Shown one piece after another: positions 5,507 through 50,969 of a DNA stretch of 53,461 nucleotides. The stretch is taken from UHGV virus genome UHGV-0032033. One strand, 5' to 3'. Both the position numbers and the translations under genes were made by a program. The stretch comes from a virus. The first letter of the stretch is position 1, and each line of letters starts with the position of its first letter. The notes beneath the pieces were generated by a model. It searched no databases, was not told where the DNA came from, and was given only the letters and a program-made list of their open reading frames with translations.

Positions 5507-7270
5507 ATGATTTACACAACAGGCACGATAGCCGTTAGCGGAAAAACAGTTACCGGGACAGGGACTGAATTCAACGCCGCATTATCTCTGATCAGGGTTG
5601 GTTGCACTCTTATTGCCATTAGCGATCCGGTGCAGATTTTTTCAATTACAGAGGTAAAAAGCGCAACAAGTTTATCAGTAACCCCCTCGGCAAGTCCTGC
5701 TATTCCTGCTGGCACTAAATTTAGCATCCTGCTTTCAGACTCGATCTCTGTAGATGGTCTTGCTCAGGATGTCGCCGAAACACTGCGTTACTATCAGGGC
5801 AAAGAATCAGAAATAGCTGACGCCGTTGAATTTTTTAGCGACAACAAAGATGTGATTTCAGCCTCAAAATTAGCATCAACATCGGCCACCACTGCAACAA
5901 ACGCGGCAAAAACAGCAACAAGCGCCGCAGATTCAGCTAAGACATACAGAGATGAGGCCCACGAATACGCCAATCAGACCGCGCAGCCTTACGCGTATGT
6001 TTTGCAGCCGCTGCCGGACGTATGGATACCGTTCAACGATTCTCTCGATATGATCACGGGCTACGGCCCTGGCACTAAAAAAGTAACCATTGACGGGGAA
6101 GAAAAAACAATATCATCAGATAAGGTTGTTTCTTTCTCACGCGCAAGTACAGCTACTTACATTAACAAATCAGGTGTTTTAACTGTGGCTGGTATTAATG
6201 AGCCACGTTTTGAACGTGAGGGTTTGCTTATTGAGGGGCAGAGAACTAATTATCTGTTAAACTCAAATAATCCGCAGTCGTGGCCTATACACTCATCACT
6301 AAATAAAGAGTTTGGTAGCGACAACTTTAACTTCAACTACGCAACAGTATCGCCGACTAATGATATTATAGGGACAACAGGAGGCTACGCTATAATCAAT
6401 GTTGCCACCAGAGATAGGTTTAATCTACTTAGCGGTGAAAGTTTTACTTTTTCTTGTCGTGCCAAAGGTAGCAAGTGCAGACTCCGTGCGAGAGTGGCTT
6501 ATGCTGGGGATGGTGGTGCTGACGTTTTTTCATCAGACGCATATCTAGACTTTGATTCAGTAACGGCTTCAGTAAGCGGTCAAGTCAATCTTATTAAAGC
6601 AAAACTCGAGCGGCGCGGAGAATGGCTTTATTTTGAAGTAACATACACGGCAGACGCTGATCGCAACGGCATAAACTGCGCTTTCTTTTTTGCTAACAAG
6701 ATTAGCGAAGAGCCATTTTATGAAGATTCAACGATTACGCTAGCTACACCACAAATTGAGCTTGGATCATGCGCATCATCGTTTATTATTTCTAATGGTA
6801 CGCCAACAACAAGAGCAAGTGATGTCGTAACAGTTACATCACAAAACAACCTTGCCGTTAGACCGTTTACTATTCTTTGCGAGGTTAGCAAAAGCTGGAA
6901 CACGCCGCCAAATGTAGCACCACGTATATTTGATGTTGGTGGTCACATAATTGATGATAATTATTTGTCACTTGGATTTGTTTCAACAGGAAAACTTTCT
7001 GCAAATGTTGGAATGATTCAACCGCAAATTGCCGTTGATGGTAATAGGTTTATTGCTGGCTTGAGAGCTAAATCAGATTTATCAGTTAATGCTATATTAA
7101 ATGGAAACTATACGACTAATACTAACGGGAAAGTATTTGGCATTACTGCAAATTTATACCGTTTTGGTGGTCAAACTTCGTCTGGTACTCGTCACCTGTT
7201 TGGTCACATTAGAAATTTTAGGGTTTGGTTTAAGGAGCTAACAGATTCGCAAATAAGCGAAGTGGTTTAA
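5507..7270 (+). CDS. side tail fibre protein
   Basis: 587-aa ORF with RBS ggag after J; Ala/Ser/Thr-rich N-terminal shaft-like region (ASTSATTATNAAKTATSAADSAKTYRDEA); position typical of lambdoid tail fibre. Confidence 0.7.
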   Translation: MIYTTGTIAVSGKTVTGTGTEFNAALSLIRVGCTLIAISDPVQIFSITEVKSATSLSVTPSASPAIPAGTKFSILLSDSISVDGLAQDVAETLRYYQGKESEIADAVEFFSDNKDVISASKLASTSATTATNAAKTATSAADSAKTYRDEAHEYANQTAQPYAYVLQPLPDVWIPFNDSLDMITGYGPGTKKVTIDGEEKTISSDKVVSFSRASTATYINKSGVLTVAGINEPRFEREGLLIEGQRTNYLLNSNNPQSWPIHSSLNKEFGSDNFNFNYATVSPTNDIIGTTGGYAIINVATRDRFNLLSGESFTFSCRAKGSKCRLRARVAYAGDGGADVFSSDAYLDFDSVTASVSGQVNLIKAKLERRGEWLYFEVTYTADADRNGINCAFFFANKISEEPFYEDSTITLATPQIELGSCASSFIISNGTPTTRASDVVTVTSQNNLAVRPFTILCEVSKSWNTPPNVAPRIFDVGGHIIDDNYLSLGFVSTGKLSANVGMIQPQIAVDGNRFIAGLRAKSDLSVNAILNGNYTTNTNGKVFGITANLYRFGGQTSSGTRHLFGHIRNFRVWFKELTDSQISEVV

Positions 7271-7280
7271 TGGTGATAAT

Positions 7281-7547
7281 ATGATTGATATTACATTAAA
7301 ATTCACAGATAAACAGCAATACAACGACATCGTGATTAACAGCGGCTGGCTGGACGCCAATCAGTCAACCGTGTTTATTGATGATATCGGTTTTGTTCCT
7401 GTATTCGATGATCCAGAAAGCGAGACACCTGTACTGATTGAGAAAAAGGGGTATTACGTCAACATGCGTATAACTGGTGACGATGTTGATATTTCTCAAC
7501 TTGAGCCTTTCATCGTTCCAGATCCCTGCGTCCGCGCATGGGCTTGA
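7281..7547 (+). CDS. hypothetical protein, possible tail fibre assembly/chaperone
   Basis: 88-aa ORF immediately after tail fibre gene, followed by terminator. Confidence 0.35.
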   Translation: MIDITLKFTDKQQYNDIVINSGWLDANQSTVFIDDIGFVPVFDDPESETPVLIEKKGYYVNMRITGDDVDISQLEPFIVPDPCVRAWA

Positions 7548-7589
7548 TGATGCGGCAGTGATAGCATGGTGATGTTGAAAACATCGCCG

Positions 7590-7620
7590 CGAAACGAGGC
7601 TAACGCCTCGTTTCTTTTTG
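7590..7620 (+). terminator. rho-independent terminator closing the tail fibre operon
   Basis: hairpin aaacgaggc-taac-gcctcgttt followed by CTTTTTG. Confidence 0.7.
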
Positions 7621-15911: not shown

Positions 15912-16138
15912 CAGATCCCGCCGTTGCGTGATATTTGTTTTTCGCTTCGCAGCGACACCGGATTTTTAAAGAGCTTAAGGTAAGTGCCTTTTTGTGCCTT
16001 CCGTTATCTTTTTCCTTGCGTCTTTGCAAGTATGGCCTTACCTTGTCTGCAAGTTTACAAAATGGAATTTTAAGATCAAGGCTTAAAATACACGTTTTGT
16101 GACTTGCATCAAACTTTTTGAGGTTATAGGGTAGCGAC
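15912..16138. promoter_or_regulatory. divergent immunity-region control region (cI promoter / leftward early promoter, operators)
   Basis: Intergenic between divergent cI and early operon; palindromes CTTGCgtctttGCAAG (~16015-16030) and CTTGtctgCAAG (~16042-16053); 16-mer GTTTACAAAATGGAAT at ~16053; cI ATG lacks SD (leaderless-like). Confidence 0.5.
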
Positions 16139-16818: not shown

Positions 16819-16909
16819 CCGGAAAACACCAAAACGTAAACAGAAAACGTTATTTATTGTTTAAATATCAATAGCATATAAAATATTTTAAAAAGGTATA
16901 CAAAATGGA

Positions 16910-16938
16910 TTGACTCGATGTTTTACGGGGCGTATATT
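16910..16938 (+). promoter_or_regulatory. near-consensus sigma70 promoter for rightward early operon (pL-equivalent)
   Basis: TTGACT - 17 nt - TATATT; preceded by motif AGGTATACAAAATGG; followed by ~340-nt leader before first ORF. Confidence 0.6.
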
Positions 16939-23824: not shown

Positions 23825-24585
23825 GCGGGCTTAGAAATTGGGTTATCTGGTCGCTGTATGACGGCAGCGGGTACGCCGTTAAAGATTGGGCGGACGCTGG
23901 TTATAAATGTTATTGCTTCAACTATGACGGCGCTAATCACGGGGATTATGACGGGGTAAAAATAATTCATCCAAATATTGAATATGTCAATGTCTGGATT
24001 GACAGCCATTTCCTGGTAATGTTCTCCCCTGAATTGTCTGTTTATCCAGATCCTGACATTATCCTGGCCTTTCCGCCATGCGACCATCTCGCCGTGTCAG
24101 GCGCTCGTTGGTTTGCCAGCAAGCGTGAAAAAGATCCTGATTTTCAGGTGAAAGCGGCATACAACGCAAAACTGGTAGAAACGCTGGCTGATATGTATCA
24201 CGTCCCGTGGATGGTGGAAAATCCGGTAGGCGCACTGTCAACGTTATGGCGTAAACCGGATTTCATCTTCAATCCGTGCGCTTACGGTGGCTACCTGCCG
24301 GAAGATGATGAACATCCCGCTTTCCCGGAATACATAGCCGCCCGCGACGCTTACACGAAGAAAACATGTATCTGGTGCGGGAATGGATTTAAGCAGCCGC
24401 TATTCCGGCCTGTACCGATGCCGGATGAATGGGAAAACAGCAAACAGTACGCGAAATTGGGCGGGAAGTCGAAACGCACTAAGATGATCCGCTCACTAAC
24501 GCCGCGCGGCTTTGCCCGTGCTGTATTCATGGCTAACGACCGGGCCATCACTCGTACTACGCTTAACCGCGTTTTACCGGACTAA
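23821..24585 (+). CDS. compact DNA cytosine-C5 methyltransferase-like protein (254 aa)
   Basis: Motif I-like IWSLYDGSGYA, PC motif ILAFPPCDHLAVSGARW, ENV-like WMVENPVGAL, C-terminal TPRGFARAVFMAND; much shorter than canonical C5-MTases. Confidence 0.5.
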   Translation: MSGLRNWVIWSLYDGSGYAVKDWADAGYKCYCFNYDGANHGDYDGVKIIHPNIEYVNVWIDSHFLVMFSPELSVYPDPDIILAFPPCDHLAVSGARWFASKREKDPDFQVKAAYNAKLVETLADMYHVPWMVENPVGALSTLWRKPDFIFNPCAYGGYLPEDDEHPAFPEYIAARDAYTKKTCIWCGNGFKQPLFRPVPMPDEWENSKQYAKLGGKSKRTKMIRSLTPRGFARAVFMANDRAITRTTLNRVLPD

Positions 24586-24744
24586 AGTTTACAAAATGGC
24601 GTCATTGCGTGATGCGGATCACATAATGGCGCTTTTTGCCTTGTTTGGGGGTATCCATTTTGTATACTTCAAGCAAACAAAATGCTCTTTAAAAATCCGG
24701 CAGCGCTGAAATGCGTAGAAATCACCTGAAAAGGAGAGAGCATT

Positions 24745-29083: not shown

Positions 29084-29299
29084 ATGGACGTTTACGAGGA
29101 TGTTTACCTGGCACCTTCATCTTATAGCTTTTATTTTCTGATAAATGGAAAGGCTTATAGATGCGATTCTGACGGGGTGAGAGAAGAAAAGCTGTTTTGC
29201 ACTAAAGGATACCTGGATGATTTGGTTTTTGCCGGGATATTTCGCAAACGTCCGGCTAACCTGGAAGAAGAAATGCTGATCGACGAGGTGTTAAAATGA
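29084..29299 (+). CDS. hypothetical protein (71 aa)
   Basis: Track ORF. Confidence 0.45.
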   Translation: MDVYEDVYLAPSSYSFYFLINGKAYRCDSDGVREEKLFCTKGYLDDLVFAGIFRKRPANLEEEMLIDEVLK

Positions 29300-29541
29300 A
29301 AGTGAATTATTTCAGGGCAAAAGACAAGGCAACAGGAAAGCGGGTGGCTATCCTGGTTAATGAAGCAAATTATATGTTTGTTCTCCAGCCGTGGTGCATA
29401 GCTGACTATAACGATGATTATCGCCGTCACGCTGCGCGGCGGGCGGTCGGGATGAAAGGCTGGCAGCCTCGCGACATGCTTAATTATTGCGACTGGAATC
29501 TGATAGCGAAATACACGGTCGATTATAAGGGGATTTTCTGA
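29296..29541 (+). CDS. hypothetical protein (81 aa)
   Basis: Track ORF, coupled. Confidence 0.45.
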   Translation: MKVNYFRAKDKATGKRVAILVNEANYMFVLQPWCIADYNDDYRRHAARRAVGMKGWQPRDMLNYCDWNLIAKYTVDYKGIF

Positions 29542-29747
29542 TGTATGTTCGATGCACTGAATCAAAATCATCATGCTTTGAGGTTGGCGGGATATATACC
29601 GTATCTCACCTGACTGGCGATGAAAATAACATACAATACATTAAAGACGATCACGGCGACGCGTGGCGCTATTGGGATTGTTACGCACGGGGACATGTTA
29701 CCAGTCAATTCGGCACGGAAGCGATCGCGCGATTCATTAAATGGTGA
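29541..29747 (+). CDS. small protein, paralog family A member 1
   Basis: VRCTESKSSCFEVGGIYTV ... KDDHGDAWRYW; shared pattern C.(Y/E)S....F..G.IY / DD.G..W(R/Y)(F/Y). Confidence 0.55.
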   Translation: MYVRCTESKSSCFEVGGIYTVSHLTGDENNIQYIKDDHGDAWRYWDCYARGHVTSQFGTEAIARFIKW

Positions 29748-29758
29748 GAGAGGCGTTT

Positions 29759-29971
29759 ATGCAAGTTAAATGCTCATATTCAAGCAATGACAGTGTTTTC
29801 ACGATTGGGCGAGTTTATGACGTTCACATCGTTTATGGCAATGAAAATCACACAATGAATAATTGCCTTGCCTTGATTGATAATCATGACGAAATATGGG
29901 TATTCAGGCCGAGTTATGAAGGCGGTGAAATATCCGGCGTAGGTTTTGCTGCCAGCTTCGAACGTTATTAA
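29759..29971 (+). CDS. small protein, paralog family A member 2
   Basis: RBS gagagagg; VKCSYSSNDSVFTIGRVYDV ... DNHDEIWVF. Confidence 0.55.
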   Translation: MQVKCSYSSNDSVFTIGRVYDVHIVYGNENHTMNNCLALIDNHDEIWVFRPSYEGGEISGVGFAASFERY

Positions 29972-29981
29972 AGGGGCAATC

Positions 29982-30239
29982 ATGAAACATTTATATTTTG
30001 AGGTATTGCAGACGCGCGACCGCAATATATTTGAAGAAGGGAAGATCTATTGCGGCGTTCAACTCCACGGCGCACCTGGCGGTAATGGTGCAATGGCGAT
30101 AACTGGCGATGATGATAAAGTTTATTTCGCTTATGTTAGCCATATCAATAACGCCGCTGGTTTGTATATTTATCGCATAGTCCATGATTTTCGTGAGATC
30201 GCGGAGTTTTGCGCCCGCGAAGGCAGTAAACCGGAATAA
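29982..30239 (+). CDS. small protein, probable divergent family A member 3
   Basis: RBS aaagggg; FEEGKIYCGV ... ITGDDDKVYFAYV. Confidence 0.45.
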   Translation: MKHLYFEVLQTRDRNIFEEGKIYCGVQLHGAPGGNGAMAITGDDDKVYFAYVSHINNAAGLYIYRIVHDFREIAEFCAREGSKPE

Positions 30240-30249
30240 GTGAGGTGTT

Positions 30250-30486
30250 ATGAATCGGAAACATAGATACCAGTGCACATACTCACGATGCAGCGCGTTT
30301 TTTAAGAATGGCAAGATCTACGAGGTTGGCGCAGCATTGGTTGACGAAAAGGATCAGGAATATATTCACGCCATTACTGACGACCAGGGCCAGTTATGGC
30401 GCTTTTATAAAATGGGGTGTGGCACGGCGCTTGTTTATGCGCGTGCTGGTGGTGCTTTTGCTGCGTTTTCGTGTGTAGGGGTATGA
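30250..30486 (+). CDS. small protein, paralog family A member 4
   Basis: YQCTYSRCSAFFKNGKIYEV ... TDDQGQLWRFY. Confidence 0.55.
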   Translation: MNRKHRYQCTYSRCSAFFKNGKIYEVGAALVDEKDQEYIHAITDDQGQLWRFYKMGCGTALVYARAGGAFAAFSCVGV

Positions 30487-30707
30487 AAATGATTTTAACG
30501 TGTAACGAGTCGGAATTAGGCTGTTTTGAGGAAGGCGCACAGTATACGGCTGAAAAACCGATGGGATTGTCGCCTAAGTTGCCGTTTATCGTCGTGACTG
30601 ACACTTACGGGCATTTATGGTATGCGGAACCGCGCCGGGGGATTGGTCGTTATGTTGTCCGTAGTTCGGACGGGATGATGATGGTTACTCTCACAGAAGA
30701 AACATAA
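30483..30707 (+). CDS. small protein, paralog family A member 5
   Basis: RBS agggg; LTCNESELGCFEEGAQYTA ... TDTYGHLWYA. Confidence 0.55.
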   Translation: MKMILTCNESELGCFEEGAQYTAEKPMGLSPKLPFIVVTDTYGHLWYAEPRRGIGRYVVRSSDGMMMVTLTEET

Positions 30708-30804
30708 TGTGATCTGCATCACGAGGTATACAAAATGGCATTGTTTTGGCAGTGCCATTTTGTTATAAAGAGGCTGAAGAGAGAACGATACGGAGGGTAG
30801 AAAA

Positions 30805-33394: not shown

Positions 33395-33886
33395 ATGATT
33401 AGCCAATCGCTGAAGAACAAGATTATTGCTGCGGCGGCTGGTGGGGCGATCGCTATTGCGGCTGTGATGGTTAAACCATTAGAAGGCGTGGAGTACGATC
33501 CTTATCGTGATGTTATCGGTGTATGGACTGTGTGTTATGGTCACACCGGAAAGGACATTATGCTGGGTAAGACTTACACGCAATCAGAATGCGATGCTTT
33601 GTTAAACAAAGATCTCCACAAAACCGCAAAAGCGATTGACCCATATATTAAAGTCGAAATATCAGATTTTACCCGCGCGGCGCTTTATTCATTCGCCTAT
33701 AACGTAGGCGCTACCAACTTCAAAACATCAACCTTATTGAAGCTACTCAATGACGGCAAGAAATCGGAGGCATGTGCACAGCTTAAACGCTGGATATATG
33801 CTGGCGGCAAGCCGTGGCAAGGGTTAATAAACCGCCGTGATGTTGAATATGCCGTTTGCGAATGGGGTGAAACATGGAAAAGGTGA
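33395..33886 (+). CDS. SAR endolysin (lysozyme, phage 21 R-like)
   Basis: N-terminal Gly/Ala-rich SAR segment [17 protein letters not shown]; catalytic region [41 protein letters not shown] close to R21. Confidence 0.9.
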
Positions 33887-34344
33887 AGACGTTAATTATC
33901 GCCGTTGTTGTTTGCATTATTGCCGGGCTGACCGCCGTAACATGTTATTACCAGGGTGAAGCAGCGAGATTGCAGGAAGAGGTCACGACCACGCAAGGCG
34001 CACTGAAAACAGCAAGTAACACTATTCAGCAGATGAAGGAGCGAAACGCAGAGCTATCAAAACTTGATAAGAGGTATCACGATGAAATTAAAGCTATCAG
34101 ATCTGACATTGCCGATCTGCGCACTGGCATTGATAGCGGCGCTATCAGGTTGCACGTCAACGCCGAACCAGTGCGATTACTCGACAATACGGGAACCGCC
34201 AGCCGCATTGATGGAGCCACCTGTAGACTCACTCCCGACGCTGAATCGGCTTATCTATCCCTCAGAGAACAACTAAAAGAGAAAGATGCGAAGATCGCCG
34301 GACTTCAGAGCTATATCAAAACGCAGTGCTTACGCAAAAAATAA
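33874..34344 (+). CDS. Rz: i-spanin (Rz)
   Basis: N-terminal TM helix, coiled-coil periplasmic domain; overlaps endolysin 3' end. Confidence 0.8.
34082..34276 (+). CDS. Rz1: o-spanin (Rz1), embedded in Rz in +1 frame
   Basis: RBS aagagg; lipoprotein signal with lipobox LSGC, Pro-rich mature part. Confidence 0.75.
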   Translation: MKLKLSDLTLPICALALIAALSGCTSTPNQCDYSTIREPPAALMEPPVDSLPTLNRLIYPSENN

Positions 34345-45474: not shown

Positions 45475-45951
45475 ATGTCTCAGACTTGCGAAAAAGGCAC
45501 GTTTACAGGCCGTGACGTTGCTGTATTCTTCGCTATCGCTTGTCCAAATGCGAAGCCGGAAGCTGAAGCGTACAAAGCGTTAGGCATGATGCGTGGTAAA
45601 ACACTTTCCGTTGAATGGGAAACCGCTGACGCCACCGCCGATAAATCAGCCGATTACACGAAAGAATCAATGGTTACTTACAAATCCGTTTCTTTCTCCG
45701 GCGACGGTGTGTCCCGCACTGAAGAAATCCATAATCAGAAAGCGCTGAAACGCCACGTAATTACACCAGGTGAAACCACTGGATCACAACCTTATGTATG
45801 GCTAAAGATCGTTTCTCCTGTAGACGTAACCGAAGGCCCATTCCTTTGCACTTCCTTTAAAGAAGAAGATCCGCACGATGATGTTTCTACCTGGTCTATT
45901 GAGTGCGAAAGCGCTGGACAGGTAACGGTAGGCGATATCCCATCGGAATAA
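45475..45951 (+). CDS. major tail (tube) protein (putative)
   Basis: RBS agaggtaa; followed by terminator and chaperone/tape-measure genes. Confidence 0.55.
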   Translation: MSQTCEKGTFTGRDVAVFFAIACPNAKPEAEAYKALGMMRGKTLSVEWETADATADKSADYTKESMVTYKSVSFSGDGVSRTEEIHNQKALKRHVITPGETTGSQPYVWLKIVSPVDVTEGPFLCTSFKEEDPHDDVSTWSIECESAGQVTVGDIPSE

Positions 45952-45994: not shown

Positions 45995-46005
45995 GGGTGA
46001 TAACT

Positions 46006-46683
46006 ATGATTCATGTTCGGACCGGGCAATTTGCGGCGGTGGTAGACGGTAGGCGGTATGTGTTTAATCCCTGCTTCGCCGCGATGGCAAAAATAGGCAG
46101 TGACAGAGAACTGGTCGAATATTTCGCAACAATCCACGGCGGCAAATATCCATCACGCTTGCCAGCAGACCAAGACTTACGCAATCGCATTCTGGCGCGG
46201 TGTTATGGTGAAATAGTGCAGACATCAATGCACATCCTGAAATGTTGCTCAGACGATGAAATAGGCCCGTTATTGGGCGAGTGTAGGTTTACTCCTTCGG
46301 GCAAGTTGCGACTAAAACCAGGCTTGATGCCTACTGACGACGTTATCACGCTGGCGCAGCATTGCGTGTACCACGGCTTAATCGGTGATGGGCCGGAAGA
46401 AGATGCCGGAGAAATCCCGGAAGGGGAATATAAGCCGACTTTTAACGTCCTTGAATTCGTCTATTCTGCCGTTGCTCACCTGGGCTTGTCAGAATCGGAA
46501 GCATGGAATATGACAATGACCGGATATAGGGCCACTGTACGCGCTAAAACGCCGCCAGACGAAAGAAGCGAAAGAAGTAAGCCAAACGTTCACATAAATA
46601 AACGTGCTTATGACGAGCAAATGGAGGCCGCTAAAAAGGCGCTAAAAAGAATGGAAAATCGCAAGCAAGAAAAAGCCCGGTAG
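46006..46683 (+). CDS. tail assembly chaperone (lambda G-like position)
   Basis: ORF between major tail and tape measure genes; basic C-terminal tail; no frameshift site verified. Confidence 0.45.
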   Translation: MIHVRTGQFAAVVDGRRYVFNPCFAAMAKIGSDRELVEYFATIHGGKYPSRLPADQDLRNRILARCYGEIVQTSMHILKCCSDDEIGPLLGECRFTPSGKLRLKPGLMPTDDVITLAQHCVYHGLIGDGPEEDAGEIPEGEYKPTFNVLEFVYSAVAHLGLSESEAWNMTMTGYRATVRAKTPPDERSERSKPNVHINKRAYDEQMEAAKKALKRMENRKQEKAR

Positions 46684-46692
46684 ATCCGGGCG
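46660..46692 (-). terminator. hairpin terminator for reverse-strand accessory gene 46699..47112
   Basis: cccgg-taga-tccggg with T-run (gcttttt) on minus strand. Confidence 0.55.
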
Positions 46693-46698
46693 TTTGTC

Positions 46699-47112
46699 TT
46701 ATTTGATTCTAACAATATCAATAAAACCGTTACCTAAATCGACAATTGCGTGATTTTTTGCGCCAGCGCCGCCTTCATTAAAAATTCTTTCAGCGAAAGC
46801 AACTTTATTTGCTTTACACTCGTTAGCTATCCTGTTTTTTATTTCGCTATTGTTTTCAAAGACTACGCTTACAGCAGCCTCGTTTACAAGGCCATAATTA
46901 AACCAACGAGCATAAACTGGTTTACCTTCAAAAATTTTATCAATTGCCTTAAAAAGAATTGTGGGTGCGGCTGGTTCTTTTTTGATCATGTCGTGATATG
47001 CGGCTACATGGTTTGCCACTTCTTCACAGTTAATGTTTATGGCCTCGTTAGCGTTCGCGTTAAATGCCAGTGCAGTAATCACAGCAAGTACCATTTTTGC
47101 TAACCGTTTCAT
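46699..47112 (-). CDS. secreted (signal-peptide) protein, reverse-strand moron between tail chaperone and tape measure
   Basis: N-terminal signal peptide MKRLAKMVLAVITALAFNANA; two Cys; AT-rich flanks; opposite orientation to tail genes. Confidence 0.6.
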   Translation of the reverse strand: MKRLAKMVLAVITALAFNANANEAININCEEVANHVAAYHDMIKKEPAAPTILFKAIDKIFEGKPVYARWFNYGLVNEAAVSVVFENNSEIKNRIANECKANKVAFAERIFNEGGAGAKNHAIVDLGNGFIDIVRIK

Positions 47113-47414
47113 AATTAACCCCTGTAATTATTCTGATTTGCTAAATGCTTCCTTTAACTTAGTTATACACGCATATTGTTTATTTTTTAAGTGCTTTTAA
47201 CATTTCTTCGATAAGGTCCGCATAGCGTTCATATTCGTTGGGACGGTAGTTTACGTTTCTCATTTTCTTATCCTCTTTCACTTCCTCCGGGACATCCGGC
47301 CTTCCTGCATCTCTTCTATCTTTCTCTACATCATCTATACAAAACGGCATCGTTAAAATAAAGACATTTTGTATAAAATAGATACATAGATCACATTTTG
47401 CATGAGGTTAAATC

Positions 47415-49757
47415 ATGGCTACCAGTGTAGGCACAATTTATTACGAAGTTGACGCAAAAACAGGACAACTTCTTGTAGCACAACGACAGGCAGACCAAGC
47501 CTTTGACCGTATAGAGCGCGGTGCTAAACAGGCCGATCGCCAGGTAAACACACTGAAAACATCAATCAAAGCACTGACCAGGGTTATCCATCTGCTAATT
47601 GCTGCCGAGGCCGTTAGACAGTTTATGGAAATGGCAGAGCAGGCCAAAATGCTACGCGTCAAAATCAAAATGCTGACAGGCGACGCGGAATCTGCCGGGC
47701 GGGTTTTTGATGGTCTGAAAGAAATATCCAGGGAGACGGGGCAGAGCCTGAAAGATACTGGCGAATTATGGCAAGGCCTGGCTATCTCACTAAAAAACAC
47801 CTCCGCTACGGAAGGGCAATTGCTTAACCTGGTTGGCACCATTCAGAAGATGGGCGCGTTAGGGGGCGCGTCAGCAGAGCAAATGTCAAACTCTATGCGC
47901 CAGTTCCGACAGTCTATTGACGGCGGCGTACTTCGCGCAGAAGAATTCAACAGCTTGCTTGAAAATACGCCGACCATCGTACAAACAATGGCCCGCAAGA
48001 TGGGATTATCAATGGGCCAGTTCCGCGCCGAAATGCTGGACGGCAAGATCACAGCGGAAAGGATGGTTAACGCAATCCAGGCGGCTACGCAGGAAACAAA
48101 CGAGCAGTTCGCACAGTTGCCGCGCACATCCGGCATGGCTATCAATGAACTAAAAGTCGAGGTAATGGGTCTGGTGGAACAACTGGACGATCTTTTCGGT
48201 GTATCAGATGGCGTAGTCTCAGCTATCGACTTGATCACAAAAGGAGTTAATGGGTTAGGTGAGGGCGCTAAATTCGCTAAAACCTGCTTTGATACGCTCA
48301 AAACGGCTGGTAGCGAATTCATCGACATGTTTGATGATGTGGCTGTGAAGGCTGGCGAGGTGGCAGAGAAGATCATCGCAATGGTGACGCCAATCAAGGC
48401 GCTAATGGATGGCTATAAATGGATGAAGGAGGTAGTAGGAGAGCAAACCGACGAATATAACAGCAACTACGAGAAGAAATACGGGAAGACCGTTGGCAAG
48501 GTCATGCAACTACAGGATGATCTGACCGCAGCAATCCAGGCTACAGAAGAAGCAAGGAAAAATGAACAGAATGCTGCCAATGACGGAGCGATTACCGGAT
48601 TCGACAAGCCAGTAGACAAGCCGAAAAAACAAAAAAAAGAGAAGAAATCGGAAGCCGATCGGCTTGGTGATAAAGGCATTAGCGTTTCTGACCAGTACAA
48701 TAAAGACGCAGCAGCTATGCGCAAAGCATTAGAGAACGGCAAGGCCATTGATGCTGCATTCGCCCAGGGTAAAATCACACTCCTTGAGTACCGCGCCGCG
48801 CAAAAAGGGATCGGCAAAGAACTGAAAGAAGAATTAGCGCAGATCCCGGCAGATGAACTGCGTGATAAATGGTCGCAAATAGTTAGCCCGATGGACCAGC
48901 TAAAAGGAGAGGTTGACCCCATCCAGCAGGCGCAAAATGAATGGGCCATCCGTAAGCAAATGTTGTTAGATCTGAACGCATCAGAGACACAAATCAGGGC
49001 CGAACAACTACAGCATGAACGGACCATTACTAACCTTAAGTGGGAGCAATGGCAGGCGCAAAGCGATACCAACGGCCTTATAGGTGATTGCGTGAATGGC
49101 CTCAAAGGCGGTATGAGCAATGCGCTTGTCGGCCTGCTTAACGGTACTCAATCATTGAGCGATGTTTTTGCTAACTTAGGGAGCAATATACTAGGGAACA
49201 TCGGCAACAGGCTTTCTGACATAGCAGCCGACTGGATAGCAGATCAGATCATGATGGAGACGCAAAGCAAGGCAACGCAGGCCAGCACAACGGCAAGCGC
49301 GGTAGCCGCTCAGGGTAGCATCGCTGCGGCAGCGGCCCCGGCAGCGGCGGCGACAGCGGCATCAACTGGCGGTAGCTGGGCGGCGGCTGGCTCGGCGGCG
49401 CTTACTGCGATCATGTCGCTGGCAACATCCATTTTCGGCGGCGGGCGCTTTAATGGTGGTAGCGTAATTGGTGGCAATATGTACCGCGTCGGGGAACATA
49501 ACAGGCCGGAGCTATTCCAGACGTCTAACGGCAACCAATACATGATCCCCGGCGAGAATGGCAGGGTTATCCCGGGGCGTGATATTGGCGGCGGCGGCGG
49601 TATCAGTATGCCTGTTTACATCGACATTCAAACCACAAACGGATTTAGTGACGAAGACACACGCAGACTTGAACAGACAATGGAACGTGTAGCCATGAAA
49701 ATGATAACAAGGGAATCGCAAAGACCTGGCGGGATGTTGCAACCGCGCCGCAAATAA
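47415..49757 (+). CDS. tail tape measure protein
   Basis: 780 aa, alpha-helical N-terminal two thirds, Gly/Ala-rich C-terminal region; position between chaperone and M. Confidence 0.85.
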   Translation: MATSVGTIYYEVDAKTGQLLVAQRQADQAFDRIERGAKQADRQVNTLKTSIKALTRVIHLLIAAEAVRQFMEMAEQAKMLRVKIKMLTGDAESAGRVFDGLKEISRETGQSLKDTGELWQGLAISLKNTSATEGQLLNLVGTIQKMGALGGASAEQMSNSMRQFRQSIDGGVLRAEEFNSLLENTPTIVQTMARKMGLSMGQFRAEMLDGKITAERMVNAIQAATQETNEQFAQLPRTSGMAINELKVEVMGLVEQLDDLFGVSDGVVSAIDLITKGVNGLGEGAKFAKTCFDTLKTAGSEFIDMFDDVAVKAGEVAEKIIAMVTPIKALMDGYKWMKEVVGEQTDEYNSNYEKKYGKTVGKVMQLQDDLTAAIQATEEARKNEQNAANDGAITGFDKPVDKPKKQKKEKKSEADRLGDKGISVSDQYNKDAAAMRKALENGKAIDAAFAQGKITLLEYRAAQKGIGKELKEELAQIPADELRDKWSQIVSPMDQLKGEVDPIQQAQNEWAIRKQMLLDLNASETQIRAEQLQHERTITNLKWEQWQAQSDTNGLIGDCVNGLKGGMSNALVGLLNGTQSLSDVFANLGSNILGNIGNRLSDIAADWIADQIMMETQSKATQASTTASAVAAQGSIAAAAAPAAAATAASTGGSWAAAGSAALTAIMSLATSIFGGGRFNGGSVIGGNMYRVGEHNRPELFQTSNGNQYMIPGENGRVIPGRDIGGGGGISMPVYIDIQTTNGFSDEDTRRLEQTMERVAMKMITRESQRPGGMLQPRRK

Positions 49758-49759
49758 CA

Positions 49760-49790
49760 CTAAGGCCGCTATAAGCGGCCTTTATTTTAC
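49760..49790. terminator. bidirectional hairpin terminator after tape measure gene
   Basis: aggccgct-ataa-gcggcct followed by TTATTTT; convergent gene ends on both sides. Confidence 0.7.
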
Positions 49791-50074
49791 ATGGTAAGGA
49801 TATAAATTAAACAGCACAGGAATGCGGGCGCGGCGAAGTCGCAAACGCTAGCCATATTCCATGCTTTTGGTAAAAAACCACCATACCACGGCATTCTTTC
49901 TCGTTTCCCTCCGCAAAATTCCGCTATGTAACGATATTCAGCCTGTGTGTGTTCCCGCGCAAAAAAGAATGTACATCCAATCAGGCCGCCAGTGAGATAA
50001 TCACCAGTAAGCAGGCCGATAACAACCTGTATAGTCGCCGCAGCCAGTGCGTGACCAATAACGGTTAAATCCAT
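49787..50074 (-). CDS. reverse-strand moron: small membrane protein (95 aa)
   Basis: Three hydrophobic segments; last gene of 4-gene minus-strand operon. Confidence 0.5.
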   Translation of the reverse strand: MDLTVIGHALAAATIQVVIGLLTGDYLTGGLIGCTFFFAREHTQAEYRYIAEFCGGKRERMPWYGGFLPKAWNMASVCDFAAPAFLCCLIYILTM

Positions 50075-50076
50075 CG

Positions 50077-50262
50077 TTAATCCTCCCGATCGTTCTCAAA
50101 TGTGCCATCTACAAATTTTTGCAGCCCGGCGATAAGTTGTGTTGCCTGCGATTTTTCAATTACTATGGTTTCAGTCCCCATAAGTTCGGTTATCCACAGC
50201 CGACCATCCTCATCAAGATCTAACCTAACTCCGTAACATAACTCTGTTTCGTCAATAATCAT
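50077..50262 (-). CDS. reverse-strand moron: small acidic protein (61 aa)
   Basis: MIIDETELCYGVRLDLDEDGRLWITEL...; stop abuts next ATG. Confidence 0.45.
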   Translation of the reverse strand: MIIDETELCYGVRLDLDEDGRLWITELMGTETIVIEKSQATQLIAGLQKFVDGTFENDRED

Positions 50263-50371
50263 TTTTCCTCCTATAATCTTCCGTTACGTGCGACGTAACC
50301 CCTGCCGAACATCACTAACCAGATGTTCCAGATCTCCCGCTAAGTATATTTCTCCTCCTCCATATTCCACC

Positions 50372-50626
50372 TCACTTATGAGCGCCTTTCACTCCGCAAT
50401 GACGGTTGTATTCCAGGTGATCGATAATTAACCAAATATTCAAATCTTCACTGAACAGCCGCCAGTCAGGATTGATATCGAATTTAAAGCCATAACCATC
50501 ACGTAATTTTTTGGGGCGGGCTTCTTTTTTCAGGAAGGCGTTAAGCAACTTCTTGCCTTTCTTGATTACCCGTTCCTGTGCATTCTTTTGTGCTTTCAGG
50601 TTTTTTTCGATAGTTACCAGTTTCAT
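50372..50626 (-). CDS. reverse-strand moron: Lys-rich small protein (84 aa)
   Basis: RBS ggggtgag; basic N-terminal half (KAQKNAQERVIKKGKKLLNAFLKKEARPKK). Confidence 0.5.
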   Translation of the reverse strand: MKLVTIEKNLKAQKNAQERVIKKGKKLLNAFLKKEARPKKLRDGYGFKFDINPDWRLFSEDLNIWLIIDHLEYNRHCGVKGAHK

Positions 50627-50643
50627 AACTCACCCCATCGTCC

Positions 50644-50799
50644 TTAGTTAAGCGCCCTCAGGAAGAAATCCCGGTATTCATCATCCTTCGCGTTCATCAT
50701 GAATTGACCGTATTTGAATGCGTCGTCGAAACCCTTAACAATTGCTACTTCCACTTGCTCGAATGCGTTGTTTAGCATCACTACTACATAGCTACTCAT
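50644..50799 (-). CDS. reverse-strand moron: small protein (51 aa), first gene of minus-strand operon
   Basis: RBS gtgagg; MSSYVVVMLNNAFEQVEVAIVKGFDDAFKYGQFMMNAKDDEYRDFFLRALN; below track cut-off. Confidence 0.4.
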   Translation of the reverse strand: MSSYVVVMLNNAFEQVEVAIVKGFDDAFKYGQFMMNAKDDEYRDFFLRALN

Positions 50800-50969
50800 T
50801 TTTGGGCCTCACTTGCTGGTACCGCTTTTCTTCTTGCTTCCTGTATACAGCTTGTTGCTTCATGTGTGAATCCATATTGTAAACTAGCTATAATTCTTGT
50901 GACGAATATCTCATTTTTCGCGTAGAAGCGCGTAAAGATATATACAAAATGTAACTTACAGGAGGGGGT

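Follow-up and report, generated by a model that had tools for sequence, protein, structure and literature searches.

Between the DUF6246 gene and the tape-measure gene of the UHGV virus genome UHGV-0032033, positions 46692-47414 (hereafter the slot) hold what is very probably a genuine moron-type cassette encoding an exported protein. Positions are those of the whole stretch of DNA analysed (the window; 53,461 nucleotides (nt), one strand, 5' to 3'). The central gene is a minus-strand open reading frame (ORF) of 137 amino acids (aa), whose family we call F0. This accessory cassette would be transcribed against the late operon, most likely from a palindromic promoter-like element just upstream of the tape-measure ATG, through a 27-aa ORF and the 137-aa gene, and the transcript would end at a hairpin that overlaps the 3' end of the DUF6246 gene. 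The 137-aa product would leave the cytoplasm by the Sec pathway, be cleaved after ANA, and fold in the periplasm as a soluble, mostly helical protein of 12.8 kDa. There the mature protein would most likely protect the lysogen from incoming phages, by superinfection exclusion that acts after adsorption. We put forward this complete reading, in which the product of the moron cassette acts as a periplasmic anti-phage defence for the lysogen, tentatively and at somewhat less than even confidence, the arguments for its last step being contextual.

An earlier note, made by a model from the letters alone, had described a 137-aa minus-strand ORF with a signal peptide and two cysteines. This description holds: the coordinates are exact, the n-, h- and c-regions have the canonical anatomy and the cysteines are residues 29 and 99 (C29 and C99). 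Judged by its pattern of substitution, 46699-47112 on the minus strand is a real gene under purifying selection. The ratio of nonsynonymous to synonymous substitution rates (dN/dS) has a median of 0.08 for the 137-aa frame and of 0.07 for the mature part alone. Between the two F0 subclades (approximately 72% amino-acid identity) dS exceeds 1.5, and is thus saturated, with dN at approximately 0.17. C29, C99 and 60-odd further positions are invariant across 16 aligned homologues. Because synonymous sites are saturated while dN/dS is approximately 0.08, a chance ORF is excluded. The proposal that the frame is a chance ORF in an AT-rich spacer, or that the real gene lies on the other strand (a 117-aa plus-strand ORF, 46750-47103), can point to an antisense frame open for 110-134 codons in all relatives and to plus-strand ORFs annotated in the slot in some relatives' GenBank records, but is effectively refuted by these substitution values, the invariant cysteines, the signal peptide and the Shine-Dalgarno sequence, and by PGAP and three phage records, all of which call the minus-strand gene.

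The signal peptide was called with a rule-based check of the n-, h- and c-regions, lipobox and hydropathy. By these rules the n-region (MKRLAK) has a net charge of +3, the h-region (MVLAVITALAF) has a mean Kyte-Doolittle value of 2.72 and the c-region (NANA) carries Ala at -3 and -1, so that the anatomy is canonical and the cleavage site is of the AXA type. A scan for the motif [LVI][ASTVI][GAS]C found no lipobox in the 137-aa protein, the first Cys lying 8 residues past the predicted cleavage, and the hydropathy profile gave no second hydrophobic or transmembrane (TM) segment in the mature part, where the highest 19-residue value is 0.70. The protein is therefore predicted to be a Sec-exported, signal peptidase I-cleaved, soluble periplasmic protein. 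Its predicted mature form starts with NEAIN, is 116 aa long and has a pI of 6.3. It carries exactly two cysteines, which probably form a C29-C99 disulfide. An AlphaFold2 model of the F0 protein, built on a 15-sequence alignment, has a predicted local distance difference test score (pLDDT) of 79.6 and a predicted template modelling score (pTM) of 0.78, with block means of 80-94 over most of the length of the mature domain. Its topology is five helices followed by a C-terminal beta-hairpin.

The signal-peptidase site itself is variable in length. In two homologues (P0003 and P0004; 139 and 141 aa) the Asn-Ala repeat grows from NANA to NANANA and NANANANA, which resembles slippage on a short repeat and retains the AXA cleavage site.

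The source genome is that of an mEp021-like (mEpimmI) temperate coliphage, to which MagusPhagus is closest among deposited phages, with 87% nucleotide identity in this region. The same minus-strand gene occurs in MagusPhagus, in mEp021 (mEp021_63) and in mEp010 (mEp010_97), annotated in these as 'hypothetical protein'; in the mEp021 record gp63 has this label while the neighbouring genes are tagged 'virion structural protein'. A search of 5.8 billion protein clusters yielded 17 F0 clusters. All of those that carry a species name are from Escherichia coli and the remaining ones are metagenome or viral contigs. The gene is present in 8 of 5,426 complete E. coli genomes, its carriers being E. coli of gut, blood, cattle, deer and lettuce, and in every context examined it occupies the slot between the chaperone-position and tape-measure genes.

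No family match was obtained for the 137-aa protein in Pfam, PHROGs, NCBIfam or PADLOC. A sequence-profile search of the PDB gave nothing above noise, and comparison of folds gave no significant match. A profile search of 1.84 billion representative proteins returned the F0 family itself, one truncated fragment and three long proteins. The last were judged spurious because they match through several short stretches that are summed; P0020 and P0021, the two that were inspected as sequences, contain internal repeats. The earlier note had suggested looking among periplasmic inhibitor and virulence-factor families, and no similarity to these was seen by sequence or fold. In particular, neither a family hidden Markov model (HMM) nor a fold matched for the lysozyme inhibitors Ivy, PliC/MliC and PliG, the VasI family (PF11319) gave no HMM match to the F0 protein, and PADLOC-DB 2.0 had no HMM match for this protein or for six other proteins found in the slot. 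On the evidence of these searches F0 is an orphan family restricted to E. coli phages. The protein is not Ipe, the known conversion factor of mEp021, since ipe is mEp021_29, encodes approximately 77 aa and lies in the early region. The F0 gene is not discussed in the mEpimmI paper (PMC11893012).

The context of the gene was studied by alignment of the slot in seven sequenced phages and by a survey of 51 loci from IMG/VR, GenBank and the source genome. The gap between the DUF6246 and tape-measure genes is 640-1278 nt in the mEpimmI group, whereas the two genes are no more than 110 nt apart in at least 12 distant DUF6246 phages. The idea that the cassette interrupts a tail chaperone-tape measure pair can thus be kept in part: the pair is contiguous in distant relatives and the tape measure belongs to PF20155, but the name 'chaperone' for the DUF6246 product is a positional inference only, taken from the place of its gene between the tail tube and tape-measure genes. 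Three other distant DUF6246 phages (L061-L063; approximately 39% identity) have low-GC inserts at the same junction (approximately 6700-7600 in the numbering of these loci), with plus-strand genes for lipoproteins and a secreted protein. Since these distant phages also carry inserts, the junction is a recurrent landing site for envelope-protein genes.

Across the 51 loci the slot holds at least eight unrelated cargo families, most of which are secreted, lipoprotein or membrane proteins. Families occur singly or combined (for example, F1+F2, F1+F4, F0+F2 and F5+F3). The 137-aa exported protein F0 is found at 19 loci. F1, at 16 loci, is a 219-aa VasI-family lipoprotein (PF11319, E 1.2e-15; 58.1 bits against a cut-off of 26.5); F2, at 11, is a 124-aa lipoprotein; F3, at 10, is a two-TM protein accompanied by a 35-aa TM peptide; F4, at 7, has 106 aa and no export signal; and F5, at 6, is a secreted protein of 116-119 aa. 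F6 (74 aa) and F7 (a 165-aa secreted protein) were each seen at one locus. The possibility that some of these are divergent homologues was rejected, as hhalign gave probabilities below 1% for F0 against F1, F2, F5 and F7 and for F5 against F7. The earlier note would have been refuted had the ORF not been conserved as a frame in related phages. The F0 frame is in fact kept under purifying selection in every carrier, yet its carriers make up no more than the 19 loci given above.

Exchange of cargo does not follow the neighbouring gene. Full-length identities of at least 97% between tape-measure alleles can go together with different cargo (F0, F1+F2 or F1+F4), and cargo thus reassorts independently of the tape measure. 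In addition, near-identical signal peptides can precede unrelated mature domains. For example, one F0 member (P0009; MKRLAKVAMMVALVGFAFNAHA) and the F5 protein of locus L028 (MKRLAKVVMMVALVGFAFNAHA) share 21 of 22 residues. Nucleotide identity between families is mostly 0.4-0.74 in the leader and falls to 0.23-0.34 over the initial 200 nt of mature-coding sequence, which suggests recombination at the boundary of leader and mature domain. From these comparisons the F0 gene is accessory, dispensable cargo in a slot that exchanges unrelated envelope-protein genes. Given the variety of cell-envelope proteins found at this site in related phages, prophage 'host-protection' genes are most likely swapped there. 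New here are the slot as a cassette hotspot, its conserved leader ORF, a palindrome common to regulatory regions and the presence of unrelated mature domains behind near-identical leaders.

The reverse-strand ORF described in the earlier note is a genuine accessory gene with an export signal, but the unit holds two genes, the first being the 27-aa ORF upstream. On the minus strand the order is promoter-like element, small ORF, exported-protein gene and terminator. The small ORF, with a length of 27-29 aa, is found in 35 of the 51 loci. Its ratio of nonsynonymous to synonymous polymorphism (pN/pS) is 0.12 and its variable sites are distributed 9/5/20 over the three codon positions; by these measures it evolves as a protein under purifying selection. 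A tblastn search of 50,697 phage records gave six matches, all in phages of the mEp collection or MagusPhagus. The ORF is unannotated in mEp021; the records of mEp554 (mEp554_92/93), mEp010 (mEp010_98) and MagusPhagus (CDS0038) show plus-strand ORFs across this stretch of the slot. These look like mis-calls.

The small ORF is separated from the 137-aa gene by 67 nt (47113-47179) in the subclade of the source phage, compared with approximately 13 nt in the mEp021 type. This spacer holds a TGTATAA-type -10-like sequence (GCGTGTATAACT), which may be an internal promoter; the promoter-like hexamers upstream are degenerate.

Just 5' of the tape-measure ATG lies a palindrome with the general form TATACAAAATGG-N16/17-CCATTTTGTATA. 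Read on the minus strand, an arm (47375-47364) is followed by a -35 hexamer TTTATT (47362-47357), 17 nt and a -10 hexamer TATAGA (47339-47334). Read on the plus strand, it offers a -10 hexamer TATAAA (47372-47377), 38 nt 5' of the tape-measure ATG. Most relatives have TATACAAAATGG-C-TTCACT-17 nt-TATAAA on the minus strand. A near-consensus early promoter at 16897-16938, pointing toward an N-like gene, reads TATACAAAATGG-A-TTGACT-17 nt-TATATT, and the layout of arm, 1 nt, -35, 17 nt and -10 is therefore shared by the slot and the early promoter. In 40 distinct upstream sequences (51 loci) the arms are nearly invariant and the -35 region and spacer between them vary, which argues that the arms themselves are constrained, whether because proteins bind there or because they act as -10/UP-like elements. 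The palindrome may be a compact bidirectional promoter.

The arm is not confined to the slot. The exact 9-mer TTTTGTATA has seven copies in the window, with 0.7 expected, and one of these lies inside a coding ORF. The repeated arm, often in inverted pairs (positions in Table 1), would either bind a phage regulator or act as a promoter module. Sites of the LexA, CRP, TyrR, IHF, DnaA and P2 Ogr types were compared with it by eye and none fits.

At the other end of the cassette, the minus-strand transcript continues after the hairpin with UUUUUCUU, a U-run, and a good U-run is present on the minus transcript only. The left stem of the hairpin and the A-tract are the last codons of the DUF6246 gene, and the hairpin is kept in 7 of 7 phage genomes compared, regardless of cargo. 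Lying half inside the 3' end of the DUF6246 gene and retained whatever the cargo, it belongs to the conserved backbone. The claim that the gene has its own hairpin terminator is accordingly right as to the hairpin and its minus-strand U-run but not as to ownership. The poor U-run on the plus strand would fit late transcription continuing into the tape-measure gene. No known RNA family was found in the slot; there is a single sub-threshold match to the rimP leader, which overlaps the terminator hairpin. The AT-rich upstream region remarked on in the earlier note agrees with a GC content of 0.34-0.40 over 46600-47400 against 0.47-0.52 on both sides.

Table 1. Features of the cassette and its backbone, and further copies of the palindrome arm in the window
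Feature	Position	Strand	Details
Exported-protein gene (family F0)	46699-47112	-	137 aa; ATG 47112-47110, TAA 46701-46699; mEp021_63 orthologue
Sec signal peptide coding region	47050-47112	-	Residues 1-21; predicted cleavage ANA^NE; rule-based anatomy
Shine-Dalgarno sequence of the 137-aa gene	47119-47122	-	GGGG, 6 nt 5' of ATG; direct sequence reading
Small ORF, first gene of the cassette	47180-47263	-	27 aa, MRNVNYRPNEYERYADLIEEMLKALKK; Shine-Dalgarno GAGGA
Palindromic element	47334-47377	.	TATACAAAACGG 47336-47347 and inverted partner CATTTTGTATA 47365-47375
Intrinsic terminator hairpin	46675-46691	-	GCCCGG-N5-CCGGGC; 8 nt past TAA; free energy (dG) -15.8 kcal/mol, z -4.2
DUF6246 gene, left backbone flank	45997-46683	+	228 aa; PF19759, E 1.8e-54; phrog_791
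Tape-measure gene, right backbone flank	47415-49757	+	780 aa; PF20155 TMP_3, E 4.4e-50
Tail tube gene	45475-45951		PF06199; directly upstream of the DUF6246 gene
Arm copy	16053-16066		Partner near 16091; upstream of CI-like repressor gene
Arm copies	24578/24658 (region 24578-24700)		After cytosine methyltransferase gene, beside boxA-like TGCTCTTTAAAAA
Arm inverted pair	~30690-30735		After lysis genes
Arm copy	50941-50951		Upstream of second reverse cassette

The term 'moron' was first used for HK97 gene 15, which stands at the chaperone/tape-measure junction and whose product, a membrane protein, keeps the DNA of superinfecting phages from entering (PMC3594210). Like the F0 gene, which has the DUF6246 gene in the chaperone position, it lies at the junction of the tail assembly chaperone and tape-measure genes of a temperate E. 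coli siphophage, is extra DNA in comparison with related phages, has a terminator and encodes a small product located in the envelope (as predicted for F0). The two differ in orientation, HK97 gene 15 running along the late operon and the F0 gene being reversed behind a second small gene. They also differ in product: HK97 gp15 is a 62-aa protein anchored in the inner membrane with bacterial YebO homologues, whereas F0 is predicted to be a cleaved, soluble protein of 116 aa and is without bacterial homologues. The uncleaved N-terminal membrane anchor of gp15 has no counterpart in F0, which has a cleavable AXA signal and a mature part without a hydrophobic segment. Exclusion has been demonstrated for gp15 and is proposed for F0. 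In its arrangement the F0 cassette works like the HK97 gene 15 moron, but it lies outside that family.

Phages of the mEpimmI group use the envelope lipoproteins Lpp021 and Lpp010 for exclusion, as shown experimentally by Negrete-Mendez et al. (2025; PMC11893012). These share with F0 the phage group, a location in the envelope (predicted for F0) and a gene within the structural gene cluster. However, the Lpp proteins have a lipobox, are encoded by other genes (gp81 in mEp021) and have exclusion spectra that track receptor groups, while F0 has no lipobox and occurs in nearly identical copies in phages that depend on OmpA and on LamB. The lipobox with a lipidated Cys at +1 that marks proteins of the Cor/Llp/Lpp type is accordingly absent from the F0 protein.

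Other systems resemble the cassette in part. Spackle (Sp) of T4 is a small periplasmic superinfection exclusion protein with a signal peptide; it is mainly helical and acts on the tail machinery of the incoming phage. By this description it is like F0, which is small, with a predicted signal peptide, a mainly helical model and a predicted location in the periplasm. In defence hotspots of the P2/P4 type, in prophages and satellites, many unrelated accessory genes alternate at a fixed position in the backbone. The slot, too, is bounded by conserved sequence and has unrelated genes alternating between otherwise similar genomes, but its cargo is small and mostly exported or in the membrane rather than consisting of cytoplasmic nucleases or abortive infection systems, it gives no PADLOC matches, and the slot comes with a leader ORF that is conserved and with the promoter-like palindrome. 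Lambda bor is likewise an accessory envelope-protein gene near the late/tail region and is expressed from the prophage. Both bor and lom share with the F0 gene the coding of an envelope protein and an accessory position in or near the late/tail region of a temperate coliphage; their products, a lipoprotein (Bor) and an outer-membrane beta-barrel (Lom), have host-interaction phenotypes and show no similarity to F0. Lom is a prophage-expressed moron product (PMC3594210). A VasI-like fold has been reported in the anti-phage system SDIC4 (bioRxiv 10.1101/2024.01.28.577318).

An anti-phage role for the mature F0 protein is suggested because HK97 gp15, at the same junction, excludes superinfecting phages, because the alternative cargo consists mostly of envelope proteins, including a VasI-family lipoprotein whose type of fold occurs in an anti-phage system, and because the adjacent reverse cassette carries a ParE-like toxin domain. 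In addition, conflict genes typically show fast reassortment of unrelated alleles at one site, as seen here, and mEpimmI phages already employ exclusion lipoproteins (PMC11893012).

Several results weigh against a defence expressed by the lysogen. Neither sequence nor fold comparison links the F0 protein to exclusion, defence, immunity or virulence proteins, and homology to HK97 gp15/YebO was rejected at an hhalign probability of 0.5%. Matching of cargo to the tape-measure allele was rejected for lack of co-variation, and a self-directed, tape-measure-specific exclusion such as that of HK97 gp15 is thus unsupported. Matching to the outer-membrane receptor was also rejected, since near-identical F0 proteins occur in mEp021 (OmpA-dependent) and mEp010 (LamB-dependent). 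If F0 excludes phages, it is not tuned to the receptor or the tape measure of its own phage. As to expression, the slot hexamers of the phage studied here are weak (TTTATT/TATAGA) and a generic promoter scan reports no promoter there. The same arm stands beside the repressor gene and at the early promoter, so that the cassette could be regulated with the lytic genes and not be on in lysogens.

This last point also speaks for a function in the phage cycle, which we regard as unlikely. The protein would then be made in lytic growth and would stop progeny from injecting into infected or lysing cells, or would modulate lysis or the envelope. The arm flanks the repressor gene and lies just upstream of the -35 of the early promoter, which suggests shared lytic regulation, and early-expressed periplasmic exclusion proteins such as T4 Sp are a known precedent. 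However, the gene is present in 19 of 51 loci and is swapped for unrelated genes on the same backbone, which implies that it is not essential, and in the mEp021 record the label 'virion structural protein' is given to neighbouring genes but not to the orthologue.

Equally little weight is given to a fitness or virulence factor of lysogenic conversion, the arrangement that the earlier note had in mind, which would alter the host envelope or its tolerance of stress (lysozyme, serum, host peptides) in the manner of lambda Bor and Lom. It would agree with the predicted export, with the moron position and with the origin of the carriers in gut, blood, cattle, deer and lettuce, and Lom and other such moron products have been described (PMC3594210). 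The lack of any match by sequence or fold to Ivy, PliC/MliC, PliG or a virulence family speaks against it, as does the rarity of the gene in complete E. coli genomes. In addition, sister phages substitute unrelated envelope proteins, a pattern more typical of conflict genes.

An orphan immunity protein that neutralizes a competitor's toxin acting in the periplasm (a type VI effector or a bacteriocin domain) is quite improbable. Periplasmic immunity proteins are typically small, with a signal peptide or lipobox, and F0 is small and has a signal peptide. Moreover, the alternative cargo F1 is a type VI-associated lipoprotein of the VasI family, and many alleles behind similar leaders resemble polymorphic toxin/immunity loci. 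The absence of a match to immunity proteins, noted above, applies here too.

The periplasmic defence of the lysogen, which we prefer, can be extended to the slot as a whole. The junction would then be a dedicated exchange site at which a fixed backbone module drives interchangeable envelope effectors, and F0 would found a family of soluble periplasmic anti-phage proteins with a new fold, blocking DNA entry and wired to the regulatory circuit of the phage. The parts of the module would be the palindromic promoter/operator (found also at the immunity and early promoters), the leader gene of 27-29 aa, the shared segment coding for the signal peptide and the fixed terminator. Taken jointly, this is a doubtful proposition.

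Phages of the mEpimmI group reportedly match lambdoid phages in frequency among human faecal E. coli (PMC11893012), and their accessory genes would thus help to shape by which phages, and perhaps by which competitors, gut E. coli can be attacked. At least eight small envelope proteins make the slot a compact natural library, in a context that is fixed and easy to clone. These could reveal new mechanisms of periplasmic exclusion, which is poorly understood in comparison with cytoplasmic defence systems, and the unrelated mature domains behind one signal peptide illustrate a way in which exported effectors might be exchanged among phages. For annotation there is a modest gain: several GenBank records leave the small ORF unannotated or call it on the opposite strand.

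Other reverse-strand units occur in the window. A second reverse cassette (49787-50799, minus strand) has four small genes between the tape-measure and minor tail genes, and its content differs among relatives. Among its products are a protein of 84 aa that bears a ParE-like toxin domain (50372-50626; PF24732, E 9e-11), one of 51 aa encoded just upstream of this, which may be its antitoxin, and a 95-aa hydrophobic protein (49787-50074). With this toxin domain, the reverse cassettes of the tail module can be said to carry conflict-type genes. A crude lipobox scan of the window detected no exclusion lipoprotein of the Lpp type (as in PMC11893012). The only lipobox ORF that it returned encodes a 64-aa lipoprotein (34082-34276, plus strand) and is embedded in a 156-aa ORF (33874-34344), which stands where the mEp021 map puts the lysis genes; the arrangement is typical of an embedded o-spanin. 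Finally, ORFs of 139 aa (with no Pfam match) and 107 aa at 29155-30314 (minus strand), downstream of the inverted-pair element at 30690-30735, may form a third reverse-strand accessory unit.

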